Shown: piece after piece, positions 1,227 to 63,857 of the stretch
How the letters are laid out: each line of letters opens with the position of its first letter
Numbering within the stretch: the stretch's first letter is position 1
DNA from: Patescibacteria group bacterium
GTDB lineage: Bacteria; Patescibacteriota; UBA1384; XYA2-FULL-43-10; 1-14-0-10-43-13
NCBI GenBank assembly: GCA_041674765.1
Contig: JBAYVE010000004.1
Coordinates: 26,751 to 90,750, forward strand
DNA: 64,000 nucleotides
Direction: 5' to 3'
The notes under the pieces: generated by a model
Told to the model about the DNA's origin: nothing
What the model saw: only the letters and a program-made list of their open reading frames with translations
Databases searched by the model: none
Position numbers and translations under genes: made by a program

Positions 1227-4070
1227 ATGTCTTTACTCGATAAAATCTATAATCCCAGCCGTAGGGTGATAAGCTCCCTTCAGAGCCAGGTTGCGAAAAT
1301 CAACGCCTTTGAAAGCGAACTTAGCAAATTATCAGATGAGGCTTTGAAAGCCAAGACCTTGGAATTCAAAGAGAAGCTCGCTGATTTAGGCCGGCAGAAT
1401 GAAATCATAGAGGAGATCACACCCGAAGTTTTTGCGGTCATGAGAGAAGCGATGAAGCGTGTTTGGGGAGAACGCCATTTTGATGTCCAGCTGATCGGTG
1501 GATTGGTTCTTCATCAGGGTAAGATCGCCGAGATGAAAACCGGTGAAGGCAAAACGATTGTGGCTACTCTGCCCTTGTATCTGAATGCTCTGACCGGTCA
1601 GGGAGTCCACCTTGTGACTGTGAATGATTATCTTTCCCGCCATCAGGGAGAAGGAATGGGGGAAGTATTTCATTTTTTGGGTCTTTCTACCGGTATTATC
1701 CAGAGTAATCAGGAAACTTATCGTTTCGTTAAAAAACATAATTACAAACATTATTCGGAAAGTGAAGGCCTAAACTTAGAGCCTTGTTCGCGTAAGGATG
1801 CTTATGCTTGTGATGTCACTTATGGTACAAACAACGAATTTGGTTTTGACTATCTGCGCGATAACATGGCGCCGAGCGTTGAACTCTGCTCTCAGCGGAC
1901 GCTTAATTTTGCTATCGTTGATGAAGTGGACTCAATCCTGATCGATGAGGCTAGAACTCCGTTGATTATCTCGGCTCCGGCAGAGGAATCAACTGGCATG
2001 TATCAACAGTTCGCCTCACTCGTGCCACGGTTGAAAGAGGGAGAGGGATATATCGTCGATGAGAAGGACAAGGCAGTTTCGCTGACAGATAAGGGAATCG
2101 CCGAGATGGAAAAAATGCTTCATATAGACAATATTTATGAAGCCGGTGGTATCGCGATGGTTCATCACCTGGAGCAAGCCCTGAAGGCGCATGGTTTATT
2201 CAAAAAGGACCGTGATTATGTCGTCAAGGAAGGGGAAATTATTATCGTTGATGAGTTTACCGGCCGTTTGATGGTTGGCAGACGTTATTCGGAGGGACTC
2301 CATCAGGCAATTGAGGCGAAGGAAAATGTTGAAGTAAAAAGTGAGTCGCAGACCTTGGCTACAATCTCCTTCCAAAATTTATTTCGCATGTACGGAAAAT
2401 TGGCTGGTATGACCGGAACTGCCGCAACGGAAGCAGAGGAATTCTACAAAATTTACAAACTCGATGTTGTGGAAATTCCAACAAATAAATCAGTTGCCCG
2501 CAAGGATTTTCCTGATCAGATTTATAAAACGGTCGAAGCTAAGCTCGATGCGATTGTCAAAGATGTCAAAGAGAGAACCGAGAAGGGTCAGCCGATTTTG
2601 ATTGGTACTGTTTCTGTCGAAAGAAATGAGTTGCTGTCGAAAAGCTTGAAGAGGGCTGGCATCAAGCACGAAGTTTTGAACGCGAAGCAGCATGACCGTG
2701 AAGCCAAAATTATTGCCAAGGCAGGCCTCAAGGGCGCGGTGACTGTGGCAACAAATATGGCCGGACGCGGAACCGATATCAAATTGGGCGAAGGTGTCCG
2801 GGAAGTTGGAGGATTGCATGTTCTTGGTACTGAACGTCACGAGGCACGCCGTATTGACAATCAGCTCCGTGGCCGTTCCGGAAGGCAGGGCGATCCAGGG
2901 TCTTCTCAATTCTTTGTTTCGATGGAAGATGATCTAATGAGAATTTTTGGCGGCGAGCGGCTGAAGAATCTAATGAGTTCGTTGGGTCTGCCTGACGACA
3001 TGCCAGTCCAGAATGCGATGATTTCACGCTCAATTGAATCAGCCCAGAGAAGAGTTGAGGGATATAATTTCGACATTCGAAAACATCTCGTTGAATATGA
3101 TGATGTGATGAATAAGCATCGCGAGGTCATTTACAGGAAACGAAGAAGAATACTGGAATTAGAGGTCAACAACCAACAATCAACAACCAGCAACCAATCA
3201 AATTCCAATATTCAAAATCCAAATGACTATGAGACCATTGGACAGTCAGAGCCGACTGACCTGAGAAGCGAGATTCTCGAAATCATTGATGATGAGATTG
3301 AAGCAATAATCAATTTGAATATTGAAAACCCCGATAAGGCCAAATCGGAACTGACTGTAATGCTTGGTTCCCCGGTAGAGCTTTTGGATATGGAAAAACT
3401 AAAGGCTCAGGCAATAAGCCTTTATGAAGCTCGAGAAGAAAAGTTTGGGCCGGAAGTGATGCGTCAGATCGAGAAAGCGGTGTATCTAAGGACGATTGAT
3501 ATGCTTTGGGTCGAGCATCTGACAACGATGGACGAACTTCGAACCGGTATTGGACTTCAGGGTTACGGCCAGCGTGATCCTCTTATCGAATATAAGCAGG
3601 AAGCTTACCGTTTATTCGAAGGTCTACTCCGAAGCATTGAAAGTTCTGTGGCTAAAACAATTTTTCGCGTAGAAGTTTCTGCGCAACCCCAGCCGAGACC
3701 CATAGAAGAGAAAAAGCTGGAATATACTCAGCCTGATATTAGTGAAGTAGGCGGATTTGAGAATGACCTGCCCGCAGTCGCTAAAGCCCAGCTTTTGCAG
3801 GCGGGAAAAGAAGATCTGGCAGTTGCTCAGAAGATGCTTGCTATTCAGGCAGAGAGCCAAAAGCAAAAGGTTAAAAACGATGAGCTTTTAAAAAAATCAT
3901 TCGGTAAAGGCAGCAGCGTATATGACAGAATGAAGGAATCGAGTGCCTCAGGGCCTGCCTCTCAGGTCAGAAATAAATTATCAAAAGTCGGCAGAAACGA
4001 TCCCTGCCCATGCGGAGCGACTAAGGCAGACGGACGCCCGGTAAAGTACAAACATTGTCACGGGAAATAA
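1227..4070 (+). CDS. secA: preprotein translocase ATPase SecA
   Basis: 947 aa with DEAD-like motor motifs and C-terminal zinc-binding tail CPCGATKADGRPVKYKHCHGK; contains a low-complexity N/Q/S insert. Confidence 0.97.
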   Translation: MSLLDKIYNPSRRVISSLQSQVAKINAFESELSKLSDEALKAKTLEFKEKLADLGRQNEIIEEITPEVFAVMREAMKRVWGERHFDVQLIGGLVLHQGKIAEMKTGEGKTIVATLPLYLNALTGQGVHLVTVNDYLSRHQGEGMGEVFHFLGLSTGIIQSNQETYRFVKKHNYKHYSESEGLNLEPCSRKDAYACDVTYGTNNEFGFDYLRDNMAPSVELCSQRTLNFAIVDEVDSILIDEARTPLIISAPAEESTGMYQQFASLVPRLKEGEGYIVDEKDKAVSLTDKGIAEMEKMLHIDNIYEAGGIAMVHHLEQALKAHGLFKKDRDYVVKEGEIIIVDEFTGRLMVGRRYSEGLHQAIEAKENVEVKSESQTLATISFQNLFRMYGKLAGMTGTAATEAEEFYKIYKLDVVEIPTNKSVARKDFPDQIYKTVEAKLDAIVKDVKERTEKGQPILIGTVSVERNELLSKSLKRAGIKHEVLNAKQHDREAKIIAKAGLKGAVTVATNMAGRGTDIKLGEGVREVGGLHVLGTERHEARRIDNQLRGRSGRQGDPGSSQFFVSMEDDLMRIFGGERLKNLMSSLGLPDDMPVQNAMISRSIESAQRRVEGYNFDIRKHLVEYDDVMNKHREVIYRKRRRILELEVNNQQSTTSNQSNSNIQNPNDYETIGQSEPTDLRSEILEIIDDEIEAIINLNIENPDKAKSELTVMLGSPVELLDMEKLKAQAISLYEAREEKFGPEVMRQIEKAVYLRTIDMLWVEHLTTMDELRTGIGLQGYGQRDPLIEYKQEAYRLFEGLLRSIESSVAKTIFRVEVSAQPQPRPIEEKKLEYTQPDISEVGGFENDLPAVAKAQLLQAGKEDLAVAQKMLAIQAESQKQKVKNDELLKKSFGKGSSVYDRMKESSASGPASQVRNKLSKVGRNDPCPCGATKADGRPVKYKHCHGK

Positions 4071-5544: not shown

Positions 5545-6100
5545 TTTTTCCTTTTCTTCCCCTCATTTTTAAGGAGGGGCTAGGGGTGGTTTATTTATTA
5601 ATTTTCAATTTTTAATTTAAATTTTTCTAATAACTATCAACGGATCAAATCTCTTCTAGCGTGTCATCCTCGGGACCGGCGGTGTTCTCTAGAGTGGTGC
5701 CTCATTCGAGTCTGCCTTCGATTCACACTCAGGCCCTGAGCCTGTCGAATGGGAGCCTGAGGGCTCTTCCCTCAGAGTCGAAGACCGGGGACCCAATTCC
5801 TTTTTTGCGGTGTCATCCTGAGGAACCGAAGGATCTCTGAACTTGTTTCAGGTGGCATTGACTTCGCATTCGCGAGGGATTCTTCGCCTCCTCAGAATGA
5901 CAGACTAATATGGTGTATAACTGATAGATTCTTCGCCTCCGAGAACATTGGCTCAGAATGACAGTTGTTATGGTGTATGTAATCACCATATGGTGATATT
6001 GACCACTCATTAACTTTATTATATACTTGCTCATCGTTCTTGTCAAGGCTTGCTTTGGTGAGAATGTTTTAAATATCAATCGAGCTCAAATTATGCTTTC
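5545..6100. repeat. Cluster of dispersed MITE-like repeats. Modules present: gtcatcctcgggacc; cctcagagtcgaagaccgggg; ctcagaatgacag; gattcttcgcctcc
   Basis: Modules recur at 20512-20740, 27545-27684, 30047-30225, 36294-36700, 40865-41000 and 45685-45960; no convincing ORF. Confidence 0.8.
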
Positions 6101-6150
6101 AAGCCTGGTTGGAGCTAGGACCTACACAACCTAGAGCGGGAGGGAAAGGT

Positions 6151-6789
6151 ATGCCAAGAATAGAGAGTGCAATTATCATCACTGATGATATGCGTAATCT
6201 GTTGATGCATTGTTGCCGATTGAGTGGGCTGACTCAGAAAGAGCTTGCTCGGAGGGCAGGAGTGGAACAGTCATGGGCTAGCAGAGCCTTAAATGGGAGT
6301 CGGAAACGTGTCGAGAGAGCGCTTATTCAAAGTACGGTCAAGGTAGTGGCGTCTGCCCTTGAAGAAAAACAGGAGATAGATTGCGAGCAAGCAGCAGCGC
6401 ACCTAAGAAGCGCTTTCGGCGTCGGCGGCGAGCTGGTTACAAATACAGCCATGTTGTTCCGGACGATAGCCATCACCGGGCTTGTAAATTGCGGTCTCGG
6501 AATGACCGATGAGCAGGCCGTGGTATTCTGCAACCTGCCCTGTCTATTCACGCGTTTAGAAGCAGTGAAAACGATTCTGCGCGGCTTGGTTGCTATTGCC
6601 AATGCGTCAAATGGCAAGGCAGCGGAAGCTGTCGGCCAAATGATTATTGTGGGGATTGTCAATTGCGGTCTTGGGATCACGGAAGACCAGGCCAAGAAAT
6701 TCGTCTCACAACCGAATCTGGGCGAGAGAATTGACAGTGTATTGAGTGCAATGAGTGCCATCGCGGCCGCATTCGAAACTGGCAATTGA
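6151..6789 (+). CDS. HTH (XRE-like) domain protein with two CGLG repeats, paralog A
   Basis: RBS gggagggaaaggt before the ATG; LTQKELARRAGVEQSWASRAL helix-turn-helix; internal repeats GLVNCGLGMTDEQAVVF and GIVNCGLGITEDQAKKF; GC about 52% versus about 41% in flanking DNA. Confidence 0.7.
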   Translation: MPRIESAIIITDDMRNLLMHCCRLSGLTQKELARRAGVEQSWASRALNGSRKRVERALIQSTVKVVASALEEKQEIDCEQAAAHLRSAFGVGGELVTNTAMLFRTIAITGLVNCGLGMTDEQAVVFCNLPCLFTRLEAVKTILRGLVAIANASNGKAAEAVGQMIIVGIVNCGLGITEDQAKKFVSQPNLGERIDSVLSAMSAIAAAFETGN

Positions 6790-6815
6790 GAAGAAGCGAA
6801 AGGAAGGGGGCAAAT

Positions 6816-7463
6816 ATGCCGCAGGTGGAAGTTACCCTACTAACGGGAGAGATGACAGATCTTCTCGTTAAATGTGTGAAAACGAGCAAGCTCAACCAGA
6901 AGGAATTGGCCGAAAAGGCGGGAGTACAACAATCATGGCTAAGCCGTCTTTTGAGGGGGGATCGCCATCGTTTAGAGGTAGAGTCGATCAATAAAGTTGT
7001 CGGAGCATTGGCTAAAACACTTGACACGATGGGCGCTGCTGCAAGCAATCAAGCAACATATCTCAGAGAAGTCTTCTTTGGCGATGTACTGAATGCCGGG
7101 CCAATGAGTGCTGTCAAAAAGATGGCTGTGATTGGGCTGATGAAATGCGGCCTCGGCATCGACGCAGATAGGGCGGGGGAAATGTTTGATAGTGATCCCT
7201 GTCTGATGACGAAAGTGCAGGGAGCCATTCAAGTGCTTAAGGCGATTGAGGCAATCATCAATGCAATCCCTGACAGTCTCAAGGACGCGGCAGTTGGGGA
7301 GATGATCACATCAGGGATCGAAGATTGTGGCTTTGGAACTCCTCATGATGTTGCCCGTGAATTCTGTAAGCCTGACGCGAAGGAAAAAATACAGAGGGCA
7401 GTGAGTGCCTTGAGCGGAGTGAGCGTCGTCATCGAGATCGCCCGAGGCGAGGATCGAAGTTAA
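6816..7463 (+). CDS. HTH (XRE-like) domain protein with two CGLG repeats, paralog B
   Basis: RBS aggaaggggg; LNQKELAEKAGVQQSWLSRLL HTH; repeats GLMKCGLGIDADRAGEMF and GIEDCGFGTPHDVAREF; same architecture as 6151-6789. Confidence 0.7.
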   Translation: MPQVEVTLLTGEMTDLLVKCVKTSKLNQKELAEKAGVQQSWLSRLLRGDRHRLEVESINKVVGALAKTLDTMGAAASNQATYLREVFFGDVLNAGPMSAVKKMAVIGLMKCGLGIDADRAGEMFDSDPCLMTKVQGAIQVLKAIEAIINAIPDSLKDAAVGEMITSGIEDCGFGTPHDVAREFCKPDAKEKIQRAVSALSGVSVVIEIARGEDRS

Positions 7464-7492
7464 TAACTAGTGACGCGCTAGCGAGAGTGGAC

Positions 7493-7540
7493 AAAAACCG
7501 ACCGTCCGGCGTGCAAGGATGCACAAAGGGCGGTTTTTTT
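7493..7540 (+). terminator. Putative intrinsic terminator after the HTH pair
   Basis: aaaaaccgaccg...gtgcaaggatgcac...gggcggttttttt compound hairpin with T-run. Confidence 0.5.
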
Positions 7541-8949: not shown

Positions 8950-9060
8950 GTTGGTCATCTCGACATCCGCCTCTGGCGAGACGAGAGATCTTCATTTGAG
9001 TGTTTGATTCTGGATTCCCGCCTACGCGGGAATGACAGCAGAAGAGGCGGTACATCAATG
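8950..9060. repeat. MITE-like repeat (ggattcccgcctacgcgggaatgac hairpin plus companion module)
   Basis: One mismatch from the 24-bp hairpins at 52013-52036 and 52214-52237. Confidence 0.7.
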
Positions 9061-22284: not shown

Positions 22285-22314
22285 TTGACAATATTTAATT
22301 GATTATGCTACACT
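22285..22314 (+). promoter_or_regulatory. sigma70-like promoter (TTGACA, 18-nt spacer, TACACT)
   Basis: Read directly at 22285-22290 and 22309-22314, upstream of the TrpR-like gene. Confidence 0.5.
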
Positions 22315-22325
22315 GTGTTAACACG

Positions 22326-22655
22326 ATGATACTAATCAAGAATTATCAAAAAAAGATGAAAAGAGAATTGGAACCGGAATTACAATCAAAAGCAGCCAAG
22401 AAACTTTATGAAATTTTGGCGTTGATCGAAAAGCCAGAAGAGATGGCATCCTTTTTGCGCGATCTTTTGACCTTGGAAGAAATCGAAGAGGCGAGCCGGC
22501 GGTTTTTGATTGCCGGGCAACTTAAGAAAGGGGACAAAAGCATCCGTGACATTGCGAAGGAATTTGGCGTTTCGACAACGACTGTTGTTCGTATAAATTA
22601 TTGGTTGCATCACGGCACGGGTGGATATGGGATTGCTTTGGAGAAGCTAGAGTAG
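22326..22655 (+). CDS. TrpR-like (YerC/YecD family) DNA-binding protein
   Basis: LLTLEEIEEASRRFLIAGQLKKGDKSIRDIAKEFGVSTTTVVRIN fits the Trp-repressor-like fold; start ambiguous (22299, 22326 or 22356). Confidence 0.55.
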   Translation: MILIKNYQKKMKRELEPELQSKAAKKLYEILALIEKPEEMASFLRDLLTLEEIEEASRRFLIAGQLKKGDKSIRDIAKEFGVSTTTVVRINYWLHHGTGGYGIALEKLE

Positions 22656-23049: not shown

Positions 23050-25223
<2,174 letters not shown>

Positions 25224-30046: not shown

Positions 30047-30225
30047 AGTTCCTTTGTCATTCCAGACTGTAAGCTTGATCCGCTAGCTAGCGGGCTGGAA
30101 TCCAGTTACCTGCACAAGCAAAGCAACTTCCTGGATTCCCGGATCATGGATCGCCCAACTATTAGATTTCAAAGGTTAAGGCTCATCCTGTCCGAGAATG
30201 ACAATACTTAATTTATGGGAAAGAT
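30047..30225. repeat. MITE-like repeat cluster (gtcattccagactgtaagcttgatccgctagctagcgggctggaatcc; ggattcccggatcatgg; gtcatcctgtccgagaatgac)
   Basis: Near-identical element at 40877-40930. Confidence 0.8.
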
Positions 30226-36293: not shown

Positions 36294-36700
36294 ACATTTT
36301 TTATTTTATTTGTTTGTCATTTCGACACCTCAATGTGTTGTCGAGGTTTATTCAGGATCAAATTCCTTGCTTCCTCACCTTCTCGAGGGGAGGCTAGGTG
36401 GGGTGTATAAAATATAACTCCATTTGTTATTTTCTTTTTTTGAGGACAAAGGGACTTATTCTCTTCGAGTCTGAGAGTCTTTGATGTTTCTTTTTATCGA
36501 ATTGATATTTGCTAAGCAAAGTAACTGATCATCCCCCCATCGTCATTCCGGACTGTAAGCTAGAGATCTGGAATCTATCGTTATAATAGATCCTGAAACA
36601 AGTTCAGGATGACAGAATGAGTGAGGAGTTACTAAGCTAACTATTGACAAAATATTAATAATATACTATAATATATATAGATATCTGGATCTGATGGTAT
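36294..36700. repeat. MITE-like repeat cluster. Modules present: gtcatttcgacacc...; cctcaccttctcgaggggagg hairpin; gaggacaaagggacttattctcttcgagtctgag; gtcattccggactgtaagctagagatctggaatc; gatcctgaaacaagttcaggatgacag
   Basis: No coding potential; several modules match other clusters. Confidence 0.8.
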
Positions 36701-36714
36701 GAGGAGCAAAACTA

Positions 36715-37029
36715 ATGAAAATTCCCATTCATTCAGGATGGTTGGCTGTTGCAACGGCCATGGTGACACTCGCGGCCACGGGTGTAATACCGTGGTTGTG
36801 GATAGTGTGCTGGGCAGCGGTGTTTGTAGCCTTTTGGCTCATTACATCGCGTTTCGGGCTTCACAGAACGTGGGCCGCTGATCCTGCTTCAGTATCCATC
36901 ATCGCAGTTGTTGGCATCGTCCAAGCAGGATTGATTCTGCAGAACTACTCCTTCCAGGGACTGGTATTGGCCTTTGGAAATATGGTCATTATCAGCCTGT
37001 GCTGGCTAAACATTCGAAGATTCAGTTAG
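36715..37029 (+). CDS. small polytopic membrane protein (GC-rich, about 55%)
   Basis: 104 aa, 3-4 hydrophobic helices, W-rich; composition differs from the neighbouring genes. Confidence 0.45.
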   Translation: MKIPIHSGWLAVATAMVTLAATGVIPWLWIVCWAAVFVAFWLITSRFGLHRTWAADPASVSIIAVVGIVQAGLILQNYSFQGLVLAFGNMVIISLCWLNIRRFS

Positions 37030-37092: not shown

Positions 37093-38103
37093 TTAATAGC
37101 TAGATAACGATATTGTAAGATAACGATCAAGACCTGCAAGGTCTTTTTTTAGTTCTATTTTTGCGGTTGGATAGTGATAGTGTGAAAATTTTTCTATCTC
37201 CATAGCATTTCTGGGATCAAGTTCAATTAAAATCGTACCATCTTCAGCAAGGTGGTTTCGGGCTTGCGCTAGAAATCGTTTGATTATCTCTGAACCATTG
37301 TCGTCGGCAAAGATTGCATTTTGGGGTTCAAACTTAACCGTATTATGTATTATGTATTTGGTATTATGAGTTTCCAGCTCATTGCTTAATACTTTATACT
37401 CACACTTTGATACCAGCTTCGGGACATACGGCAAGTTGGCGATAATAAGATCAAACCCGCCTGACGGCGAGGCAGGCTTTTTATGAAGTTGATGATTTTG
37501 GAATAAGTCAGAATGAATAAATTTAATCGTATTGTTCGAGCACAAGCGAGAACCAGCTTGGTTTGATAGTTCTCGGCCTCTGGCCTCGAACAATAACTTC
37601 TTTGCATTCTTCCTGGCCATTTTCAGGGCTTTTGCAGAAATATCGGAGGCGTATAAGTTTATAAAGTTGGAAAGTTCATAAAGTTCATCAAGTTTTTTGG
37701 CCAGTGAGATGATGAGGCAGCCGGAGCCGGTACCAAGGTCTAAAATTTTCAATTTACAATTTACAATTTTCAATTTTTTCTGAAGGACTTCAACCGCTTG
37801 TTCTACCAAAAATTCACTTTCGGGGCGGGGGATAAGGACATCGGGCGTTACCAGAAATTCGTACCCGAAAAATTCTTTTTTTCCGGTAAGATAGACAATC
37901 GGTACATTGTTTTGGCGTTTTTTCAACAATTTCTGGAATTTATTAATTTGGCTCTTTGACGGCTCGAACTCAGGATGGCTCAGAAGGAACGTCTTGTCTT
38001 TGCTAGTCGCGTATGACAAAAGAACCTGAACATCGAGTTCGGGAGAGGCACTTACCTCTTTGAGTTTGAGGACGGATTGAGAATATAGTTTCTTCAGGTT
38101 CAT
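37093..38103 (-). CDS. prmC: release-factor glutamine N5-methyltransferase PrmC/HemK, carrying repeat-derived in-frame insertions
   Basis: DLGTGSGC and NLPYVP (NPPY) motifs; located downstream of prfA; extra segments encoded by hairpin/repeat DNA (37440-37470, 37540-37600, 37640-37700, 37745-37790). Confidence 0.8.
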   Translation of the reverse strand: MNLKKLYSQSVLKLKEVSASPELDVQVLLSYATSKDKTFLLSHPEFEPSKSQINKFQKLLKKRQNNVPIVYLTGKKEFFGYEFLVTPDVLIPRPESEFLVEQAVEVLQKKLKIVNCKLKILDLGTGSGCLIISLAKKLDELYELSNFINLYASDISAKALKMARKNAKKLLFEARGRELSNQAGSRLCSNNTIKFIHSDLFQNHQLHKKPASPSGGFDLIIANLPYVPKLVSKCEYKVLSNELETHNTKYIIHNTVKFEPQNAIFADDNGSEIIKRFLAQARNHLAEDGTILIELDPRNAMEIEKFSHYHYPTAKIELKKDLAGLDRYLTISLSSY

Positions 38104-40864: not shown

Positions 40865-41000
40865 TATTTCCCTCGTATGTCATTCCAGACTGTAAGCTCG
40901 ATCCGCCAGCTGGCGGACTGGAATCCAGGAAGTTTGGTCGTTATAATATAAAGTATTGGATTCCCGGATCATAGCGCTGTCTATCCGAGAATAACATTGG
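40865..41000. repeat. MITE-like repeat (gtcattccagactgtaagctcgatccgccagctggcggactggaatcc; ggattcccggatcatagcg; gagaataacat)
   Basis: Near-copy of 30055-30140. Confidence 0.8.
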
Positions 41001-41022: not shown

Positions 41023-41619
41023 ATGTCAAATATTACAGCAAAACAAATCGCAGATTTGAGAGCCAAAACAGGCATAGGAATGATGGAATGCAAGAACGCT
41101 CTTGTCGAGGCCGGCGGTAATGAAGAAAAAGCGATGGAAATCCTTCGCAAAAAAGGTGCAGCCAAGGCAGCTAAAAGATCCGAAAGGGAGACAAAAAACG
41201 GAATCATCGAATCATATATACATGCCGGTGGAAAAATCGGTGTAATGGTTGAAGTGCTCGCCGAGACAGATTTTGTCGCAAAAAACGAAGAGTTCAAAGA
41301 GTTTGCGCACGACGTTGCTCTTCATATCGCTGCGATGGCGCCGAAATTTGTTAGTCGTGACGAGGTCCCTGCAGAAGAAGTCGCAAAAGAAAGAGAAATC
41401 CTTCTCGAAGAAGTAAAAGCTTCTGGTAAGCCTGAGAATATTGCTGAAAAAATTGTAGAGGGCAGACTTTCAAAATTCTATAGTGAAATTTGTCTACTCG
41501 AACAATCTTTCGTCAAGAATCCGGACTTAACTATAAATGACCTTTTGAATGAAAAAATTTCTAAGATCGGCGAGAAAATCGTTATCTCAAGATTTTGTCG
41601 GTTTGAAATTGGAGCATAG
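41023..41619 (+). CDS. tsf: elongation factor Ts (short form)
   Basis: ITAKQIADLRAKTGIGMMECKNALVEAGG UBA-like N-terminus. Confidence 0.9.
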   Translation: MSNITAKQIADLRAKTGIGMMECKNALVEAGGNEEKAMEILRKKGAAKAAKRSERETKNGIIESYIHAGGKIGVMVEVLAETDFVAKNEEFKEFAHDVALHIAAMAPKFVSRDEVPAEEVAKEREILLEEVKASGKPENIAEKIVEGRLSKFYSEICLLEQSFVKNPDLTINDLLNEKISKIGEKIVISRFCRFEIGA

Positions 41620-41620
41620 A

Positions 41621-41712
41621 ATAGTGGAATGTAGAATGTGGAATGTAGAACGTGGAAGGGGGAACGTGGAATGGGCGATGGGGAACGGGGCAGAACGGGG
41701 GAAAGAATGGAA
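41621..41712. repeat. Purine-rich degenerate tandem repeat, second locus (ggaatgtagaatgtggaatgtagaacgtggaagggggaacgtggaatggg...)
   Basis: Shares ggaatgtagaacgtgga and gggaacgtggaatggg with 301-455. Confidence 0.8.
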
Positions 41713-44462: not shown

Positions 44463-45680
44463 ATGAAACAATCGAAATTATTTTTAAAAACTCGAAAAGA
44501 AGTGCCGGCAGATGCCGATTCGATTAACGCATCTTATCTGATACGTGCCGGTTTTGTTGAGAAGCAGATGGCCGGAGTCTATGCATTTTTGCCGCTTGGC
44601 CTTCGGGTTCTCAAAAAGATCGAGAATATTGTTCGTCTGGAGATGAACGATATCGATGGCCAGGAAATTTTAATGAATGTACTCCAGCCCAAAGAGCTTT
44701 GGGAGGAAACAGGACGGTGGGAATCTGCTGTTGATGTTTTTTACAAATTGACGGATAGCCGGGGCAAAGAGCTAAATCTCGCGCCAACTCACGAAGAACA
44801 GGTAATTGATATCGTTCGCAGAAAGATTAAGTCATACAAAGATCTGCCGCTTTCTCTTTATCAAATTCAGACAAAGTTCAGAAATGAACCAAGAGCTAAA
44901 TCTGGGCTGCTGCGTGGCCGTGAATTTATTATGAAAGATATGTATTCCTTTCATGAAAGCGAAGAAGATCTCTGGAAGTATTATGACAGGGCTATCGCCG
45001 CGTATAACAAAGTTTTCAATCATCTTGGACTAGAGGTAAAACTGGTCGAAGCATCAGGCGGTATCTTTTCAAAATTTTCGCATGAATTTCAGGTTTTGAC
45101 TCCTGTTGGCGAAGATACCATTTTCTACTGTGATAAATGTGATTTTGCTCAAAATAAGGAAATCGCCGAAGTAAAGGAGGGCGATAAGTGTCCTAAGTGT
45201 GATGGTAAGATCAAAATGGACCGGGGGATCGAAGTCGGGAACATTTTTCCGCTGATGGATAAATATTCGAAGCCGATGAAGGCGACATTTCTCGACAAGG
45301 ACGGGAAGGAAAAGACTTTTACCATGGGTTGCTACGGTATCGGCATTTCTAGATCTTTGGCGACTATTGTTGAAGTGAATTACGATGCTACAAAGAACCA
45401 AATGATCTGGCCAGCTGCGATTGCTCCCTATGAGATCCATTTGATTTCGCTAAACCAAAATGCTGAAGCGGAGAAAATATATAATGGATTAATAAAAGAC
45501 GGCAAACAGGTACTTTTCGATGACAGGGATATTTCGGCAGGTGAAAAATTCGCCGAGGCTGACCTTGTCGGTTGCCCGGAGAGAATTATTGTTTCCAAAA
45601 AATCTCTGGAAGCTGGCGGTTATGAATTAGTCGATGTCAAAAGCGGTAAGACTGAGATAAAAAAATCTAACTTAAAATAA
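44463..45680 (+). CDS. proS: prolyl-tRNA synthetase (short, no editing insertion, Zn-ribbon CxxC..CxxC)
   Basis: Class II motifs (FLPLGLRVL, FRNEPRAKSGLLRGREF), CDKCDF..CPKCDG, C-terminal anticodon-binding domain. Confidence 0.85.
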   Translation: MKQSKLFLKTRKEVPADADSINASYLIRAGFVEKQMAGVYAFLPLGLRVLKKIENIVRLEMNDIDGQEILMNVLQPKELWEETGRWESAVDVFYKLTDSRGKELNLAPTHEEQVIDIVRRKIKSYKDLPLSLYQIQTKFRNEPRAKSGLLRGREFIMKDMYSFHESEEDLWKYYDRAIAAYNKVFNHLGLEVKLVEASGGIFSKFSHEFQVLTPVGEDTIFYCDKCDFAQNKEIAEVKEGDKCPKCDGKIKMDRGIEVGNIFPLMDKYSKPMKATFLDKDGKEKTFTMGCYGIGISRSLATIVEVNYDATKNQMIWPAAIAPYEIHLISLNQNAEAEKIYNGLIKDGKQVLFDDRDISAGEKFAEADLVGCPERIIVSKKSLEAGGYELVDVKSGKTEIKKSNLK

Positions 45681-45684
45681 TGTC

Positions 45685-45960
45685 TTCCTGAACCGACGCC
45701 AGTCGTCCGTACTCGATGCGGGATCTGCATCTTGATTCAGAATCAAATTCATTTATTGTTCGAGCTTGTCGAGAACTATTTGCTGTTTTTTCTTCTCTTT
45801 GAGGACAAGGGGACTCATTCCGAAGTCGTCCCCCTATCCTCAAACACCAACCCCCTACACGGTATAGAGGTATTCTTCTCTTTTATAAAAAATTGAACTC
45901 CTTTTAGTCGCCCTTCGGGTAAGTAATTTTTTATGTAGGAGAAGAATTATCTGTATAAAA
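45685..45960. repeat. MITE-like repeat cluster (gggatctgcatcttgattcagaatc; gaggacaaggggactcattccgaagtcg; cccctacacgg...)
   Basis: Modules shared with 23115-23145, 36430-36480 and 20590-20640. Confidence 0.75.
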
Positions 45961-46017
45961 AAATATGCAGGGCCCCGAATTATCGGGGGCCCTGCATCGG
46001 TGCAGGAAAGCGGGGCA

Positions 46018-46524
46018 TCAACCCCGTACGACCATTTCTCCTTCCGGCGTTGACGTGAGCCGTGATCGAATATCACAGAGTGTTTCCATGAGGGAGGGAT
46101 TGGCACGCGTACCTTCTTCGAGAAATGTCGCCTTGACTTGAGCCACGGCGTTGTCGAAGCGATCGAGGAGAAATTCCGGCAATTGGTCGATCGCTTTGAA
46201 GCCGATGATAACAGCACGAAACGCGCGGTGAGATCTGGCGACTTCCAGAAGTTTGATACATTGTACGGGGTCGGGTTGAATTTCAAGTTCAACTTCAATC
46301 CGCATGATTTGTGCCCATGTACTCTGCATGGACAAATCGTTCAGCCCTTGATTGAGATACCAACAGGCTTGTGAGCGAGCGAGTGCATTTTGTCGTGCTT
46401 GGCGAGAGATTTCATGCAAGGCGTTCGCACGGAGACTCGGTCTTGTTTTGGCGATACTGTACAGATCAGCGATAGAGCGCTGATTCAAAGGAATTCGAGC
46501 ATTCTTATCCAAGGGTTTGGACAT
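46018..46524 (-). CDS. hypothetical protein (GC-rich island)
   Basis: 168 aa, about 53% GC, divergent from 46862-47743. Confidence 0.5.
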   Translation of the reverse strand: MSKPLDKNARIPLNQRSIADLYSIAKTRPSLRANALHEISRQARQNALARSQACWYLNQGLNDLSMQSTWAQIMRIEVELEIQPDPVQCIKLLEVARSHRAFRAVIIGFKAIDQLPEFLLDRFDNAVAQVKATFLEEGTRANPSLMETLCDIRSRLTSTPEGEMVVRG

Positions 46525-46861
46525 GGGATTTCCTCCTAATCTGGATTGTGTAGATTGCAGGGAAGTCTTTCGGGAGACGTCCCCTGAATATATACAAAAA
46601 ATCTGGCTCGGAATCCGGCCAGTTTTATTAGCGTTTCAATATTTTAGAATGACGACACTAAAAAGCTGGCCTCTTTGCGAGGAAATCTACCTTACCAACT
46701 TTTCTAATACATAAATTCATTATGGGGATATATTAGCAAAGGAGGCTTGGAAAATCAATAGTACCATCTCGGCGTTGACTATTTAGCGTTTTTAGGTTAT
46801 GAATAGTCTAACTTGTCAAGGCTGGTATCTTGGCTTGATTTTTATGACGGGGGGTCGTTTC

Positions 46862-47743
46862 ATGGCAACTTTCGTATTACCAGAGAAAACGCAAATAGCA
46901 AAAATTGTTGACCCTGCTGTTAGAGCAGACACTGTGGCACGATTTGCGCTAGAGCATATTCTGCTCGCTCAGCACATCCAAGTGCTGATCACAGAGGGGA
47001 TGGAGCTGCCGTTGGAATACAAGGAGTATCTTTTTCCGACGGTAGGCAATATCTCACTGGCGCTCGGAGAGGGCTACGCTGATAATTTCGTCAGCAAGGC
47101 ACTTCGCCGTAGCAGGATTATCAGCCCTGAGGACAAATCATACCTCAGAATGCTGACCGAAGCCCGTTACTTCCGCCACTCTGCGAAGGAAATCGAAGCC
47201 TTACTAGCGAGAATTCGGAAAGAGATCGCCAGCGGCAAGGCTAGCGGCTACAGACTGCTGAAAAAGGAGTTTGGTTTTCAGCCGGTCGAATTGGGCAATT
47301 TTTGCCGGGATTTTCTAACGCCTGAACAGTGCGAGGCACGAAACTCTTTGGCGATTCACCACAAACCGGAGAGGCCAACTGATCCCCAGATCAGTGCTCT
47401 CATCTTGGCTGACGCTAAGGCCAGGCTTCGCGAAGGAAAAGCCGTGAGTGCTAAGTCTTATGCCAGGCTTCACCATATTGGCTTAGGCAGCGTCAACAAG
47501 GGACTTCGGGGACTGAGCCGTGACGAAGCGGCTGATAGAAAACGGATTCTGAAACAGAAGACCTTTTACCCGAATTCCCCTGATCCGGAAGTCTCTCTCG
47601 GAGTAGCCATCGATAATCTTTCGAAGATTGCCGAAAGTCCGGAAGTAACGCCGGCTCGTGCTGCAGAAATTGCTGATACGGTCGAATTTTATGTGGCGCG
47701 ATTGCGAGCATTGGCGGCAGATGCCGATCATGGCCCATCTTGA
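46862..47743 (+). CDS. hypothetical protein (GC-rich island)
   Basis: About 293 aa from MATFVLPEK; putative promoter ttgact..tatgaat upstream; no motif I recognise. Confidence 0.5.
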   Translation: MATFVLPEKTQIAKIVDPAVRADTVARFALEHILLAQHIQVLITEGMELPLEYKEYLFPTVGNISLALGEGYADNFVSKALRRSRIISPEDKSYLRMLTEARYFRHSAKEIEALLARIRKEIASGKASGYRLLKKEFGFQPVELGNFCRDFLTPEQCEARNSLAIHHKPERPTDPQISALILADAKARLREGKAVSAKSYARLHHIGLGSVNKGLRGLSRDEAADRKRILKQKTFYPNSPDPEVSLGVAIDNLSKIAESPEVTPARAAEIADTVEFYVARLRALAADADHGPS

Positions 47744-47801
47744 TTCATTCTGAATCAAGATGGGCTTGTTTTATATCAGGAAATTCATTACATTTAGGTG
47801 T

Positions 47802-49103
47802 ATGACAAATATCAAAGATAAAATCAAAGATTTACCGAAAGAGCCGGGTGTTTATCATTTCATAGATGAAAAAGGCTCTGTTCTATATGTCGGGAAGGCC
47901 AAGAATTTACAAAACCGTCTCAGACAGTATTTCCTGAAAGAGCTTGGACGTGGTCCAGCGATAGAACAAATGGTAGAAAAAGCAAGAGATATTAAATGGA
48001 TCGAGACAGAATCGGAGATTGAGGCTGTCATACTTGAGGCAGAGCTGATCAAGAAGCTAAAACCGAAATATAATATCCGCCTCAAAGATGATAAAAGCTT
48101 TTTGGTGATTAGAATTACTAAAGAAGATTTCCCAATCGTTGAATTGGTTCGCTTTCGAAATGTCGATTTATCGGACAAATCTGCTTGGTATTTCGGCCCA
48201 TATCCTGCGGGGGAACTCCTTAGAAAATCATTAAATTATTTGCGCAAGATCTTTCCCTTCCGCGATTGCTCTAAGGCAAAGTTCAATACTTACAAAAAGA
48301 AGCAGCGAACCTGTATCTATGGAGATATTAGGGTTTGTTCTGGCCCCTGCAACGCCTGGGTGAATAAATCTCAATATAATAAGAATATTATCTATCTAAA
48401 AAATTTCCTCCGGGGTAAGAAAGGAAAGATTATTGCCGACTTGGAAAAGGAGATGAAAGCCTTTAGTCGAGCACAGCGATTTGAACAAGCGGCGCTAGTC
48501 CGGAATAAGCTAGCGGGACTTGAACACTTAAAAGATGTGGCCTTGGGCCTCAGAGACGACGTTTTCAACGGCAGAGAGGTGTCTTTCCATCGAATAGAGT
48601 TTTATGACATTGCGAACATCGGTAAAGAGCACGCTGTTGGATCAATGGTTGTCTTCACGGACGGCAAATCCGATAAAGACGAATACCGGAAGTTTAAAAT
48701 TGAGGATGAGATTTCTCCGACCTCGAAAACAGGGGGTCGAAATGACACTATTTTATTGAATAACGATCTAGGCCGCTTAAAGCAAGTTTTGCAGAGGAGG
48801 TTTAAAAATGATTGGCCAATGCCCGATCTAGTTCTAGTCGATGGCGGACCCCTACAGCTCAAGATTGCCAAAGAAGTAATTTCTGGTCTAGGGCTAAACA
48901 TTCCACTAGCTTCGGTTTCCAAAGGGCCTCGGCGGGAAAAGAATGATTTTCATTATGGCGACCTCAACATCGCAAATTTCATTGGCAATGATCGGCAACT
49001 CCAGAATATTTTGATAGAAGCGAGGGATGAGGCTCACCGCTTTGCAATTTCTTATTATCGCAAACTACATCGGAAAAGTGTTTTTCAAAATGACTCTCAA
49101 TAA
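47802..49103 (+). CDS. uvrC: excinuclease ABC subunit C homologue lacking the C-terminal HhH region
   Basis: GIY-YIG (PGVYHFIDEKGSVLYVGKAKNL..R), Cys-rich UvrC motif, UVR helix, RNase-H-like endonuclease region; only about 433 aa. Confidence 0.8.
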   Translation: MTNIKDKIKDLPKEPGVYHFIDEKGSVLYVGKAKNLQNRLRQYFLKELGRGPAIEQMVEKARDIKWIETESEIEAVILEAELIKKLKPKYNIRLKDDKSFLVIRITKEDFPIVELVRFRNVDLSDKSAWYFGPYPAGELLRKSLNYLRKIFPFRDCSKAKFNTYKKKQRTCIYGDIRVCSGPCNAWVNKSQYNKNIIYLKNFLRGKKGKIIADLEKEMKAFSRAQRFEQAALVRNKLAGLEHLKDVALGLRDDVFNGREVSFHRIEFYDIANIGKEHAVGSMVVFTDGKSDKDEYRKFKIEDEISPTSKTGGRNDTILLNNDLGRLKQVLQRRFKNDWPMPDLVLVDGGPLQLKIAKEVISGLGLNIPLASVSKGPRREKNDFHYGDLNIANFIGNDRQLQNILIEARDEAHRFAISYYRKLHRKSVFQNDSQ

Positions 49104-52004: not shown

Positions 52005-52245
52005 TCTGTATTGTCATTCCCGCGGAGGCGGGAATCTATACAATGTAAATTCCTTTTATGAAACTATATTATGTTTATATATTAGCGAGTGAAAAGAACG
52101 GAACTTTGTATATTGGTGTTACTTCTGATTCAAAGAAAAGGGTTTGGCAACACAAGAATAAATTGGTAGTGGGAAGATTTATATTTTAATATTTAAGGCA
52201 AAACAACTTCCTCGATTCCCGCCTCCGCGGGAATGACGGACAAGG
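52005..52245. mobile_element. Truncated GIY-YIG nuclease mini-element bracketed by perfect 24-bp inverted hairpin repeats
   Basis: gtcattcccgcggaggcgggaatc at 52013-52036 and its exact reverse complement at 52214-52237; internal ORF 52058-52189. Confidence 0.75.
52058..52189 (+). pseudogene. GIY-YIG nuclease N-terminal fragment (43 codons)
   Basis: MKLYYVYILASEKNGTLYIGVTSDSKKRVWQHKNK matches the GIY-YIG signature; ORF stops well short of a full domain. Confidence 0.7.
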
Positions 52246-63302: not shown

Positions 63303-63857
63303 GTGAAAAGTCTAACGGGGCAGTGTTATGCTCAGATGATGCATGTGTTGGCAAAAATCGTCGAGCGCGTAGTGATTTCGTGGTCTTTGCCACGACGCCG
63401 GGATATTGACCAATATGTCCAGACCATCGACCTCATTGGGATCAACGGCAATGGATTGTTGAGACTCATGGTACAGGATCTCCGGCAGCATCCTGAACGT
63501 GCGAATGTTCTGCTTGATTTGATTGAGTCATTTGCACGGCGTCTGGGTGTGGAGTTTCCGGAGGTGACTGATGACATGAAGCGCCATCTTGCTGTGCGCC
63601 GAGCTGCAGTTTTGGATTGGTTCGATGGCATCGATCTGGAGTTGGGATTTCCCTTCAATCTGGTTTCCATGGTTGGAACGAGCGATATCACTGTAACATC
63701 GAGATTGAAGGACGGTAGTTTTAAAACATCTGGGGTCGGTGCGATTACCTTCCTTAATCCTGATAATCAATCGCCGATCGAGCCAACCATTGGAGCTCTG
63801 GTCACCGTCGTTTCAGGGGGCGGTCCGATGGATGGCCAATATCGAATTCAGGACTAA
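63303..63857 (+). CDS. hypothetical protein (GC-rich, about 52%)
   Basis: 184 aa; composition unlike the flanking pfkB gene; start uncertain. Confidence 0.4.
   Translation: MKSLTGQCYAQMMHVLAKIVERVVISWSLPRRRDIDQYVQTIDLIGINGNGLLRLMVQDLRQHPERANVLLDLIESFARRLGVEFPEVTDDMKRHLAVRRAAVLDWFDGIDLELGFPFNLVSMVGTSDITVTSRLKDGSFKTSGVGAITFLNPDNQSPIEPTIGALVTVVSGGGPMDGQYRIQD

Follow-up and report, generated by a model that had tools for sequence, protein, structure and literature searches.

Between the conserved genes proS and uvrC of a Patescibacteria group bacterium stand two divergent open reading frames (ORFs), orfA of 168 amino acids (aa) on the minus strand and orfB of 293 aa on the plus strand. The question is whether these two genes came into the genome together from elsewhere or belong to the site. 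We analysed the 64,000 nucleotides (nt) of contig JBAYVE010000004.1, positions 26,751 to 90,750, which are called the window here. A first-pass annotation had described the pair as a GC-rich candidate for a horizontally acquired two-gene module in which neither protein has a recognised motif. The two divergent ORFs were confirmed, as were the flanking genes by their Pfam matches (Table 1), and neither protein had a match in Pfam, PHROGs, NCBIfam or PADLOC. The proposed origin found less support. We consider it probable that genes turn over readily in the proS-uvrC spacer, that this hot spot holds two independent single-gene units here, and that orfB is this genome's allele of a family which is confined to the clade and evolves very fast.

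A gene family at the proS-uvrC site

In an exhaustive HMMER search of 1.84 billion cluster representatives, orfB had a single relative, P0003 (291 aa, E 2e-36). The two proteins align over their full length, with a blastp identity of 39% over 216 aligned residues. P0003 was found on one contig only (L083). There it is preceded by an ORF end that agrees with proS and followed by the start of uvrC; the gene has a promoter and a terminator of its own, and an orfA-like neighbour is absent.

Loci around relatives of ProS were fetched from species-representative genomes and metagenomes (numbered with L). Directly upstream of uvrC, plus-strand ORFs were present in L092 (530 aa), L093 (519 aa), L004 (184 aa), L005 (306 aa) and L086 (219 aa). 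By eye these ORFs look like arrays of a unit of about 51 aa, and the same unit occurs twice in orfB. A comparison of the alignment of orfB and P0003 with that of L005 and L004 by hhalign (E 0.0057, probability 6.5%) was too weak, and a held-out hidden Markov model (HMM) of the module was used instead. It was built from the units of orfB, P0003 and L092 only, and was run on the window and 160 loci, which together gave 3361 ORFs of 80 aa or more. The model recovered L093 (E 8e-25), L004 (3.8e-8), L086 (0.008) and L005 (0.013), while any other ORF stayed above 0.28. After three iterations seven proteins were at or below 4e-15 and no other ORF was below 0.1. A six-frame search of 28,279 segments added L090 (1e-12), whose gene runs off the end of the contig. 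The likeness is also seen without the model, since blastp of L092 against orfB gave 1e-9.

The family thus counts eight genomes or contigs including the window, and it lies downstream of proS in all of them. In seven of the eight, the gene immediately precedes uvrC and shares its strand; the contig of L090 ends within the gene, before any uvrC. Because the family is present at the same locus in L083, L092, L093, L090, L004, L005 and L086, orfB is a clade-specific gene that resides at this locus, rather than one freshly imported from a distant donor. The first-pass annotation had named synteny as the way to tell an ancestral from an acquired module, and the answer is divided: relatives carry the orfB family at the same locus, which speaks against acquisition, but they do not carry orfA. 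The alignment of orfB and P0003 had no match in viral contigs and metagenomes, orfB had none in phages and plasmids by tblastn, and neither the alignment nor L092 matched solved structures by sequence.

Tandem modules resembling helix-turn-helix domains

The proteins of this family consist of one to six tandem modules of 51 aa with the consensus xxLxxVRxEIxxGxxxSxxxLAxxFGxxxxxVxxxLxxxLtxxExxxR. A module of L093 (aa 167-192) passes the gathering threshold of the Pfam helix-turn-helix (HTH) model HTH_41 (PF14502; 29.1 bits versus 25, E 6.6e-7). Two of 18 modules match HTH_41, and none of orfB's own modules does. The best matches of the module profile in PDB were the HTH regions of the winged-HTH regulators ZitR/AdcR, YvoA and Lrs14, which were not significant (E 0.02-0.2). 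The seven members analysed, from which the partial L090 gene was left out, are basic proteins with isoelectric points (pI) of 8.5-10.2.

The HTH assignment is supported for the family, and orfB would be HTH-like as well, since its modules are homologous to the family module of which an L093 copy passes HTH_41. The most likely activity of orfB would then be sequence-specific DNA binding, as a regulator or another DNA-recognition protein. The module resembles the winged-HTH and HTH_41 domains of GntR- and MarR-like regulators in its pattern of helix, G-turn, "xxLAxxFG", turn and recognition helix, and also in the basic character of the proteins. Unlike those regulators, the orfB family forms arrays of one to six modules without an effector or oligomerisation domain, and is restricted to one locus in one Patescibacteria clade. 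An ORF of 118 aa at 22299-22655 of the window (+), which by eye resembles TrpR/YerC-like HTH proteins, reached E 0.2-1 with the orfB module HMM; such a weak cross-match is as expected if the orfB module is HTH-like.

Gene turnover in the spacer of relatives

The order frr-rseP-proS-[gap]-uvrC-cofD-tpiA was kept in 19 loci, whose ProS proteins are 63-78% identical to that of the window. The gap itself is short in some loci (31, 64, 66, 123 or 195 bp) and reaches 4.8 kb elsewhere, and the spacers of L012, L095, L101, L010 and L084 were empty (that of L010 has 55 bp). Among L084, L085 and L003, whose ProS proteins share 89-92% identity, the gap is empty, contains a proB-like gene and contains an 88-aa HEAT_2 ORF, respectively. 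The gap of L007 has about 390 bp with a 101-aa ORF at 54% GC, in place of the 55 bp of its close relative L010. The closely related L092 and L093 also differ in gap content. Since the flanking synteny is kept while gap content differs between close relatives, we regard the proS-uvrC spacer as a small turnover hot spot of this lineage. The gap of L068 also holds a protein with a PaaX_M / Cas2-like domain (1658-2242, minus strand; Pfam PF20803, 1.7e-14).

Bacterial pangenomics knows chromosomal hot spots, or flexible genomic islets, with conserved core genes on either side. The proS-uvrC islet is like them in having the same core flanks, accessory content that varies, some empty sites and atypical composition. 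It differs in being very small (0.3-4.8 kb, one or two genes), in lacking integrase, tRNA and direct repeats, and in that one resident family persists while its coding sequence is swapped. A literature search found nothing specific.

Tempo and mode of evolution

Between L092 and L090, the orfB-type proteins are 65% identical (nonsynonymous divergence, dN, 0.235; ratio of nonsynonymous to synonymous differences, pN/pS, 0.27) and the divergent 293-aa partner proteins are 69% identical (dN 0.205, pN/pS 0.22), while ProS is 96% identical (dN 0.023). It means that the orfB-type gene and its partner are under purifying selection and evolve about ten times faster than ProS at nonsynonymous sites.

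A second pair, L092 and L093, comes from the same metagenome (Ga0194053), with ProS proteins 99% identical and a synonymous divergence (dS) of 0.20 in proS. Their DNA is 94-98% identical up to the start codon, including a promoter and leader block of 101 bp at 91%, and 96-98% identical again from about 10 nt past the stop codon. Exactly over the coding sequence the identity is 40-55%, and the proteins are 29% identical (dN 0.815). Divergence in place cannot give such a difference at a flanking dS of 0.2, so that the coding sequence must have been replaced by a distant allele. L092 has in addition about 1 kb with the 293-aa partner gene, which encodes an acidic protein and is kept in L090. Gene tree and flanks also disagree in L083, where the nearest neighbours differ: its UvrC fragment is closest to that of L005 (81%), and its orfB-type protein is closest to that of the window (39%).

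Predicted expression signals of orfB

The predicted promoter of orfB is sigma-70-like, with TTGACT at 46775-46780, a 17-nt spacer and TATGAA at 46798-46803. It was read from the sequence; an automated promoter scan did not call it, and it is therefore given as a prediction. A leader hairpin (46815-46834) and a GGGGGG ribosome-binding site (46849-46854) follow. The orfB-type genes of relatives have a similar upstream layout: TTGAC[TA], 17 nt, TAnnnT, a leader of 50-65 nt and GGGGG or GGAGG. Promoter, leader, ribosome-binding site and terminator signals were found in all seven members checked.

A longer reading of orfB with 314 aa, from ATG at 46799, is unlikely. This ATG overlaps the predicted -10 hexamer, the gene callers picked the 293-aa start, and the alignment with P0003 begins at the 293-aa start, with the GGGGG ribosome-binding site in front of it in both genes.

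At the other end of orfB, the first-pass annotation had placed a perfect palindrome at 47741-47761. The palindrome, cttgattcattctgaatcaag, is in fact at 47739-47759 and forms the core of a hairpin at 47732-47766 (16-bp stem with 7 GC pairs, 3-nt loop). Because this hairpin spans the TGA stop codon of orfB and is directly followed by TGTTTTATAT in the terminator scan, we read the palindrome as the intrinsic (Rho-independent) terminator of orfB and not as the end of a mobile element. The orfB-type genes of relatives each end in a different strong hairpin with a T-run just before uvrC. The control region between the two genes, given before as 340 bp, does exist and measures 337 bp; the only candidate for operator repeats in it was a 9-mer repeat at chance level.

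Table 1. Features of the proS-uvrC region (positions in the window) and the pair of relatives with a replaced allele
Feature	Position	Strand	Basis
proS, prolyl-tRNA synthetase, left conserved flank	44463..45680	+	Pfam tRNA-synt_2b 6e-37, HGTP_anticodon 4e-10; gene caller 405 aa
Short dispersed hairpin module GGGATCTGCATCTTGATTCAGAATC, with degenerate copy of the orfB terminator arm	45720..45744	+	Repeat comparison
Two long hairpins in the proS-orfA spacer	45798..45950	.	Fold and self-complementary matches
Predicted orfA intrinsic terminator, ATGCAGGGCCCC..GGGGCCCTGCAT, then T run on the minus strand	45965..45997	-	Sequence reading, 33-nt self-complementarity, predicted fold
orfA, 168 aa, singleton, predicted all-alpha solenoid	46018..46524	-	ORF
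Divergent control region, 337 bp, 40% GC	46525..46861	.	Sequence reading
orfB, 293 aa, pI 9.1, member of the tandem HTH-like module family	46862..47743	+	HMMER, module HMM
orfB HTH-like module 1, aa 113-163, ALLARIRKEIASGKASGYRLLKKEFGFQPVELGNFCRDFLTPEQCEARNSL	47198..47350	+	Module HMM, i-Evalue 1.5e-18
orfB HTH-like module 2, aa 180-229, LILADAKARLREGKAVSAKSYARLHHIGLGSVNKGLRGLSRDEAADRKRI	47399..47548	+	Module HMM, i-Evalue 2e-13
Predicted orfB intrinsic terminator, 16-bp stem, 3-nt loop, then TGTTTTATAT	47732..47766	+	Terminator scan
uvrC, right conserved flank, 433 aa from ATG at 47802	47802..49103	+	Pfam GIY-YIG, UVR, UvrC_RNaseH_dom; gene call
Allelic replacement pair in relatives	L092 7323-8915 vs L093 2198-3757		Flanks 91-98%, proteins 29%

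orfA and the partner genes of relatives

orfA matched only itself among 5.8 billion proteins. It had no match in viral contigs, in phages and plasmids (tblastn), in PDB sequences or in any fetched locus, no Pfam family at E < 1, and nothing above threshold in PHROGs, NCBIfam and PADLOC. A single-sequence AlphaFold2 model has eight helices, with a predicted local distance difference test (pLDDT) of 76.9 and a predicted template modelling score (pTM) of 0.60. This model had no structural match among predicted viral proteins (BFVD), and its structural matches elsewhere were generic for helical repeats, including de novo designed proteins. Unlike HEAT and armadillo alpha-solenoids, orfA has no sequence match to the HEAT and armadillo models, and it showed no homology to the HEAT_2 ORF of L003. 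A GGAGG ribosome-binding site lies 7 nt upstream of its ATG, and the gene has its own terminator. orfA is a lineage-specific singleton, and its predicted fold is an alpha-solenoid.

The divergent layout of the window recurs in L092/L090 and L004 and is absent in L083, L093 and L005, in which the orfB-type gene has no partner at all. The minus-strand ORFs at the position of orfA (293 aa in L092/L090, 130 aa in L004, and others) are unrelated to orfA and to each other, and since they share no similarity there is no orfA family. The idea of a fixed two-gene module had to be given up for these two reasons.

Very GC-rich singleton ORFs were seen directly downstream of proS, all on the minus strand: L004 9276-9668, L068 961-1521, L087 6226-6705 and L007 2187-2492. 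They have 54-63% GC against 40-49% in their hosts, with GC at third codon positions (GC3) up to 75%, are mutually unrelated and have no detectable homologues. The gaps of L004 and L068 were the richest in GC among those inspected, and since long ORFs overlap there in other frames, their coding status is uncertain.

These overlaps bear on the question whether one or both window ORFs could be non-functional, that is, chance ORFs or decaying pseudogenes in a GC-richer, stop-poor stretch. orfA has no homologue, several ORFs overlap the pair in other frames, and the GC-rich gap ORFs of L004 and L068 show the same overlap, as this explanation would predict. It is nevertheless very unlikely. In L092 versus L090 pN is well below pS for both the orfB-type and the partner gene, orfB aligns with P0003 over its full length, both window ORFs have a correctly spaced ribosome-binding site and a terminator, and the single-sequence model of orfA is a confident one. 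In random sequence of 50% GC, a frame would stay open over 168 codons with a probability of about 3e-4, and over 293 codons with one of about 8e-7, as estimated from (61/64)^n.

Two known types of element were considered for the pair and set aside. Type II toxin-antitoxin systems consist of two small co-directional, usually overlapping genes in one operon. orfA and orfB are divergent, encode 168 and 293 aa, lie 337 bp apart and have no Pfam or PADLOC match. An element of the IS200/IS605 type was rejected because there is no Pfam match to a transposase, orfA is all-alpha by its model, and no His-hydrophobic-His motif was seen by inspection.

Base composition and the question of joint acquisition

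The GC content of 52-55% given in the first-pass annotation was overstated. orfA has 50.1% GC and orfB 51.4%, and the whole region 46000-47750 has 48.9%, while the window has 42.2%; 52% is reached in single 300-nt windows only. The 59 other long ORFs of the window have a mean of 42.4% (standard deviation 3.4), which places orfA and orfB at z 2.2-2.5. The shift is about equal at all three codon positions, and the profiles of GC1, GC2 and GC3 are nearly identical in the two genes. Their codon-usage fit gave z -1.8 and -1.6, and the tetranucleotide distance of 46001-47500 gave z 2.0. The suggested tests of GC, codon usage and tetranucleotides thus did find an atypical composition, but a moderate and not an extreme one, and four other window genes (6109-6789, 6786-7463, 36715-37029 and 63303-63857) also have about 50% GC. 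In addition, all seven orfB-family members analysed exceed the GC of their own locus by 0.6 to 15 points. Raised GC is therefore a trait of the orfB family and not the mark of one recent import.

Could orfA and orfB still have been acquired together, recently, from a donor of higher GC, and inserted between proS and uvrC? The composition would agree with it, as GC is 50-51% versus 42% at all three codon positions, codon usage and tetranucleotides are atypical, and the two genes have near-equal codon-position profiles. The same can be said of a 12- to 16-nt repeat at both edges and of the empty spacers in L012, L095, L101, L010 and L084. We give joint acquisition a slim chance only, as seven further genomes or contigs of the clade have a family member at this very site, and L083 has the window-type allele without orfA. 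No donor homologue was found among the 5.8 billion or 1.84 billion proteins, phages, plasmids and viral contigs, and the edge repeat is accounted for by the terminator hairpin and a dispersed module. Nor were genes of mobility found: there is no integrase, recombinase or transposase among the genes neighbouring orfA and orfB, and no tRNA or tmRNA gene in the window. Rfam and tRNA searches, which covered the window and nine relatives, gave nothing except a sub-threshold match on the orfA terminator hairpin. Judged as a genomic island, the pair thus shows a moderate shift in composition, no mobility signature and no donor, and only orfA, not orfB, is absent at the locus in relatives. What stands of the horizontally acquired module is the atypical composition and a spacer which gains and loses genes; a locus-resident orfB family without donor or mobility genes does not fit it.

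Among the other GC-richer genes of the window, 6109-6789 and 6786-7463 (+) are tandem paralogues (36% identity, 5e-39, 50-51% GC), each with an N-terminal XRE-type HTH (Pfam HTH_31/HTH_3) and repeats of "G(L/I)xxCGLG" in the C-terminal half. By tetranucleotides no part of the 64 kb is more atypical than 6001-7500 (z 4.5), and 6109-7463 may be another accessory islet broadly like the proS-uvrC one. The ORFs 63303-63857 (+) and 36715-37029 (+), both of about 50% GC, have no significant Pfam match; the first encodes 184 aa, and the second encodes 104 aa and is hydrophobic, membrane-like and the worst of the window in codon-usage fit (z -2.95).

Hairpins and dispersed modules of the spacers

The spacer between proS and orfA had been described as a cluster of miniature inverted-repeat transposable elements (MITEs) at 45685-45960. 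The region 45675-46020 is strongly structured (fold z -5.4 versus shuffles), with several hairpins including the terminator of orfA. However, we found neither terminal inverted repeats nor a target-site duplication that would delimit a unit, and the inverted repeats within 45681-46017 are internal hairpins. The first long hairpin, TTTGAGGA..TCCTCAAA, lies at 45798-45845, and its arm has a 23-nt copy (91%) at 36439; a second inverted repeat with 23-nt arms spans 45872-45947. Pieces of 16-23 nt of this spacer recur in the spacer 36315-36480. A 25-nt module at 45720 has one copy with 3 mismatches at 23120, upstream of ligA, where none is expected by chance.

The first-pass annotation had also tied the palindrome to the gggatctgcatcttgattcagaatc module. 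This link is real, since 45728-45743 is the exact 16-nt reverse complement of 47747-47762 in the orfB terminator, but it is short. The modules of 16-25 nt have two to four copies within the window. On this comparison they are best described as short dispersed hairpin modules, and a MITE is not established. They resemble repetitive extragenic palindromic (REP) or MITE-like hairpins in that several spacers of the window contain copies of short palindromic modules; they differ in that the copies share 16-25 nt only and that the right-hand "copy" acts as a terminator.

The module GGGATCTG[CT]ATCTTG[AT]TTCAG[AG]ATC and the related GATCCTGAAACAAGTTCAGGAT occur at 23120-23144, 45720-45744, 47736-47762 and about 36590. 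The module contains CTG-N10-CAG, and one copy lies 45 nt upstream of ligA. A reading of GGGATCTG[CT]ATCTTG[AT]TTCAG as a LexA-like SOS box was set aside, as there are two copies only and no LexA evidence. Apparent repeats near 37530-37600 are inside prmC and are chance-level 12-mers. Elsewhere in the window, REP-like hairpins TGTCATTCC...GGAATGACA are present in several spacers (9010-9037, 52012-52036, 52211-52237, 30050-30105 and 40873-40928), and G-rich degenerate tandem repeats of about 14 nt, similar to GTGGAATGTAGAAC, are present at 297-442 and 41610-41701.

An immunity region or a specificity locus?

Phage immunity regions offer another model, in which the islet would be a remnant or minimal mobile element, or a prophage immunity region, with an HTH repressor-like gene and divergent cargo kept for immunity or exclusion. 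The divergent layout with a shared control region fits such a model, and divergent pairs with unrelated partners are also seen in L092/L090 and L004. HTH modules together with extreme allelic divergence between conserved flanks also recall the heteroimmune lambdoid phages; in the L092/L093 pair, flanks of 91-98% identity surround proteins of 29% identity, as in such immunity regions or in idiomorph-like cassettes, and an HTH protein with a divergent neighbour is common to both. Yet the islet had no match in PHROGs, PADLOC, phage records, BFVD viral structures or viral contigs. No integrase, att site or phage structural gene lies nearby, and in all cases the islet occupies one fixed chromosomal site beside housekeeping genes. 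There is no phage context, no detected similarity to cI, Cro or other phage repressors, and no operator repeat was identified. We therefore consider a phage-derived immunity region unlikely.

A bolder reading keeps the likeness to idiomorphs and drops the phage. The spacer would be an idiomorph-like specificity locus, in which ancient divergent tandem-HTH alleles are kept by diversifying or balancing selection and are swapped exactly between conserved promoter and terminator, sometimes with their own unrelated partner such as orfA. It would then be a self/non-self, phage-immunity or host-interaction determinant of an undescribed kind. We offer this as a speculation with a small chance of being right.

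The probable explanation: two independent genes at a site of turnover

We thus return to the probable explanation, a turnover hot spot with two independent single-gene units. With its own promoter, leader, strong ribosome-binding site and terminator, orfB would be an autonomous unit. orfA, placed divergently between the terminator region of proS and the promoter of orfB, may be cargo controlled from the shared 337-bp region, and orfB may be what controls it there. Homologous recombination in the conserved flanks is the most likely way in which related genomes exchanged alleles and partner genes, and it would explain the patchy distribution, the disagreement of gene tree and flanks, and the raised GC.

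Several points count against this explanation. Neither orfB nor P0003 had a Pfam HTH match at E < 1, and the AlphaFold model of orfB is of low confidence (pLDDT 52), so that a fold search with it was uninformative. The remote-homology and structure checks proposed in the first-pass annotation thus gave a family with HTH-like modules, but no homologue for orfA and no reliable fold for orfB. DNA binding and expression of orfB are predictions from its sequence, and the coding status of orfA, which has no homologue, rests on ORF length, ribosome-binding site, terminator and the single-sequence model. Recombination through the flanks is inferred. The best ProS identity among available relatives is 78%, so the borders of the islet in the window genome cannot be mapped. 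The distribution of the family was surveyed in about 1.6 Mb of loci around proS, and copies elsewhere would escape this survey. A search of the module profile against 5.8 billion proteins had no match, but it missed even P0001 and P0003, whose own modules were in the query, and is not counted as negative evidence.

The genomes of Patescibacteria are tiny, and accessory genes that persist in them are therefore likely to matter. What looked like a foreign GC-rich island would be a fixed chromosomal site at which small genes are gained, lost and swapped, and it brings to light a previously unnamed family of tandem HTH-like proteins at the proS-uvrC site. If orfB is not a determinant of DNA recognition or immunity, the islet would hold an ordinary lineage-specific regulator and a gene without known relatives. 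If it is, the locus would offer a way into conflict between strains, or interaction with the host, in an uncultured, episymbiotic lineage.

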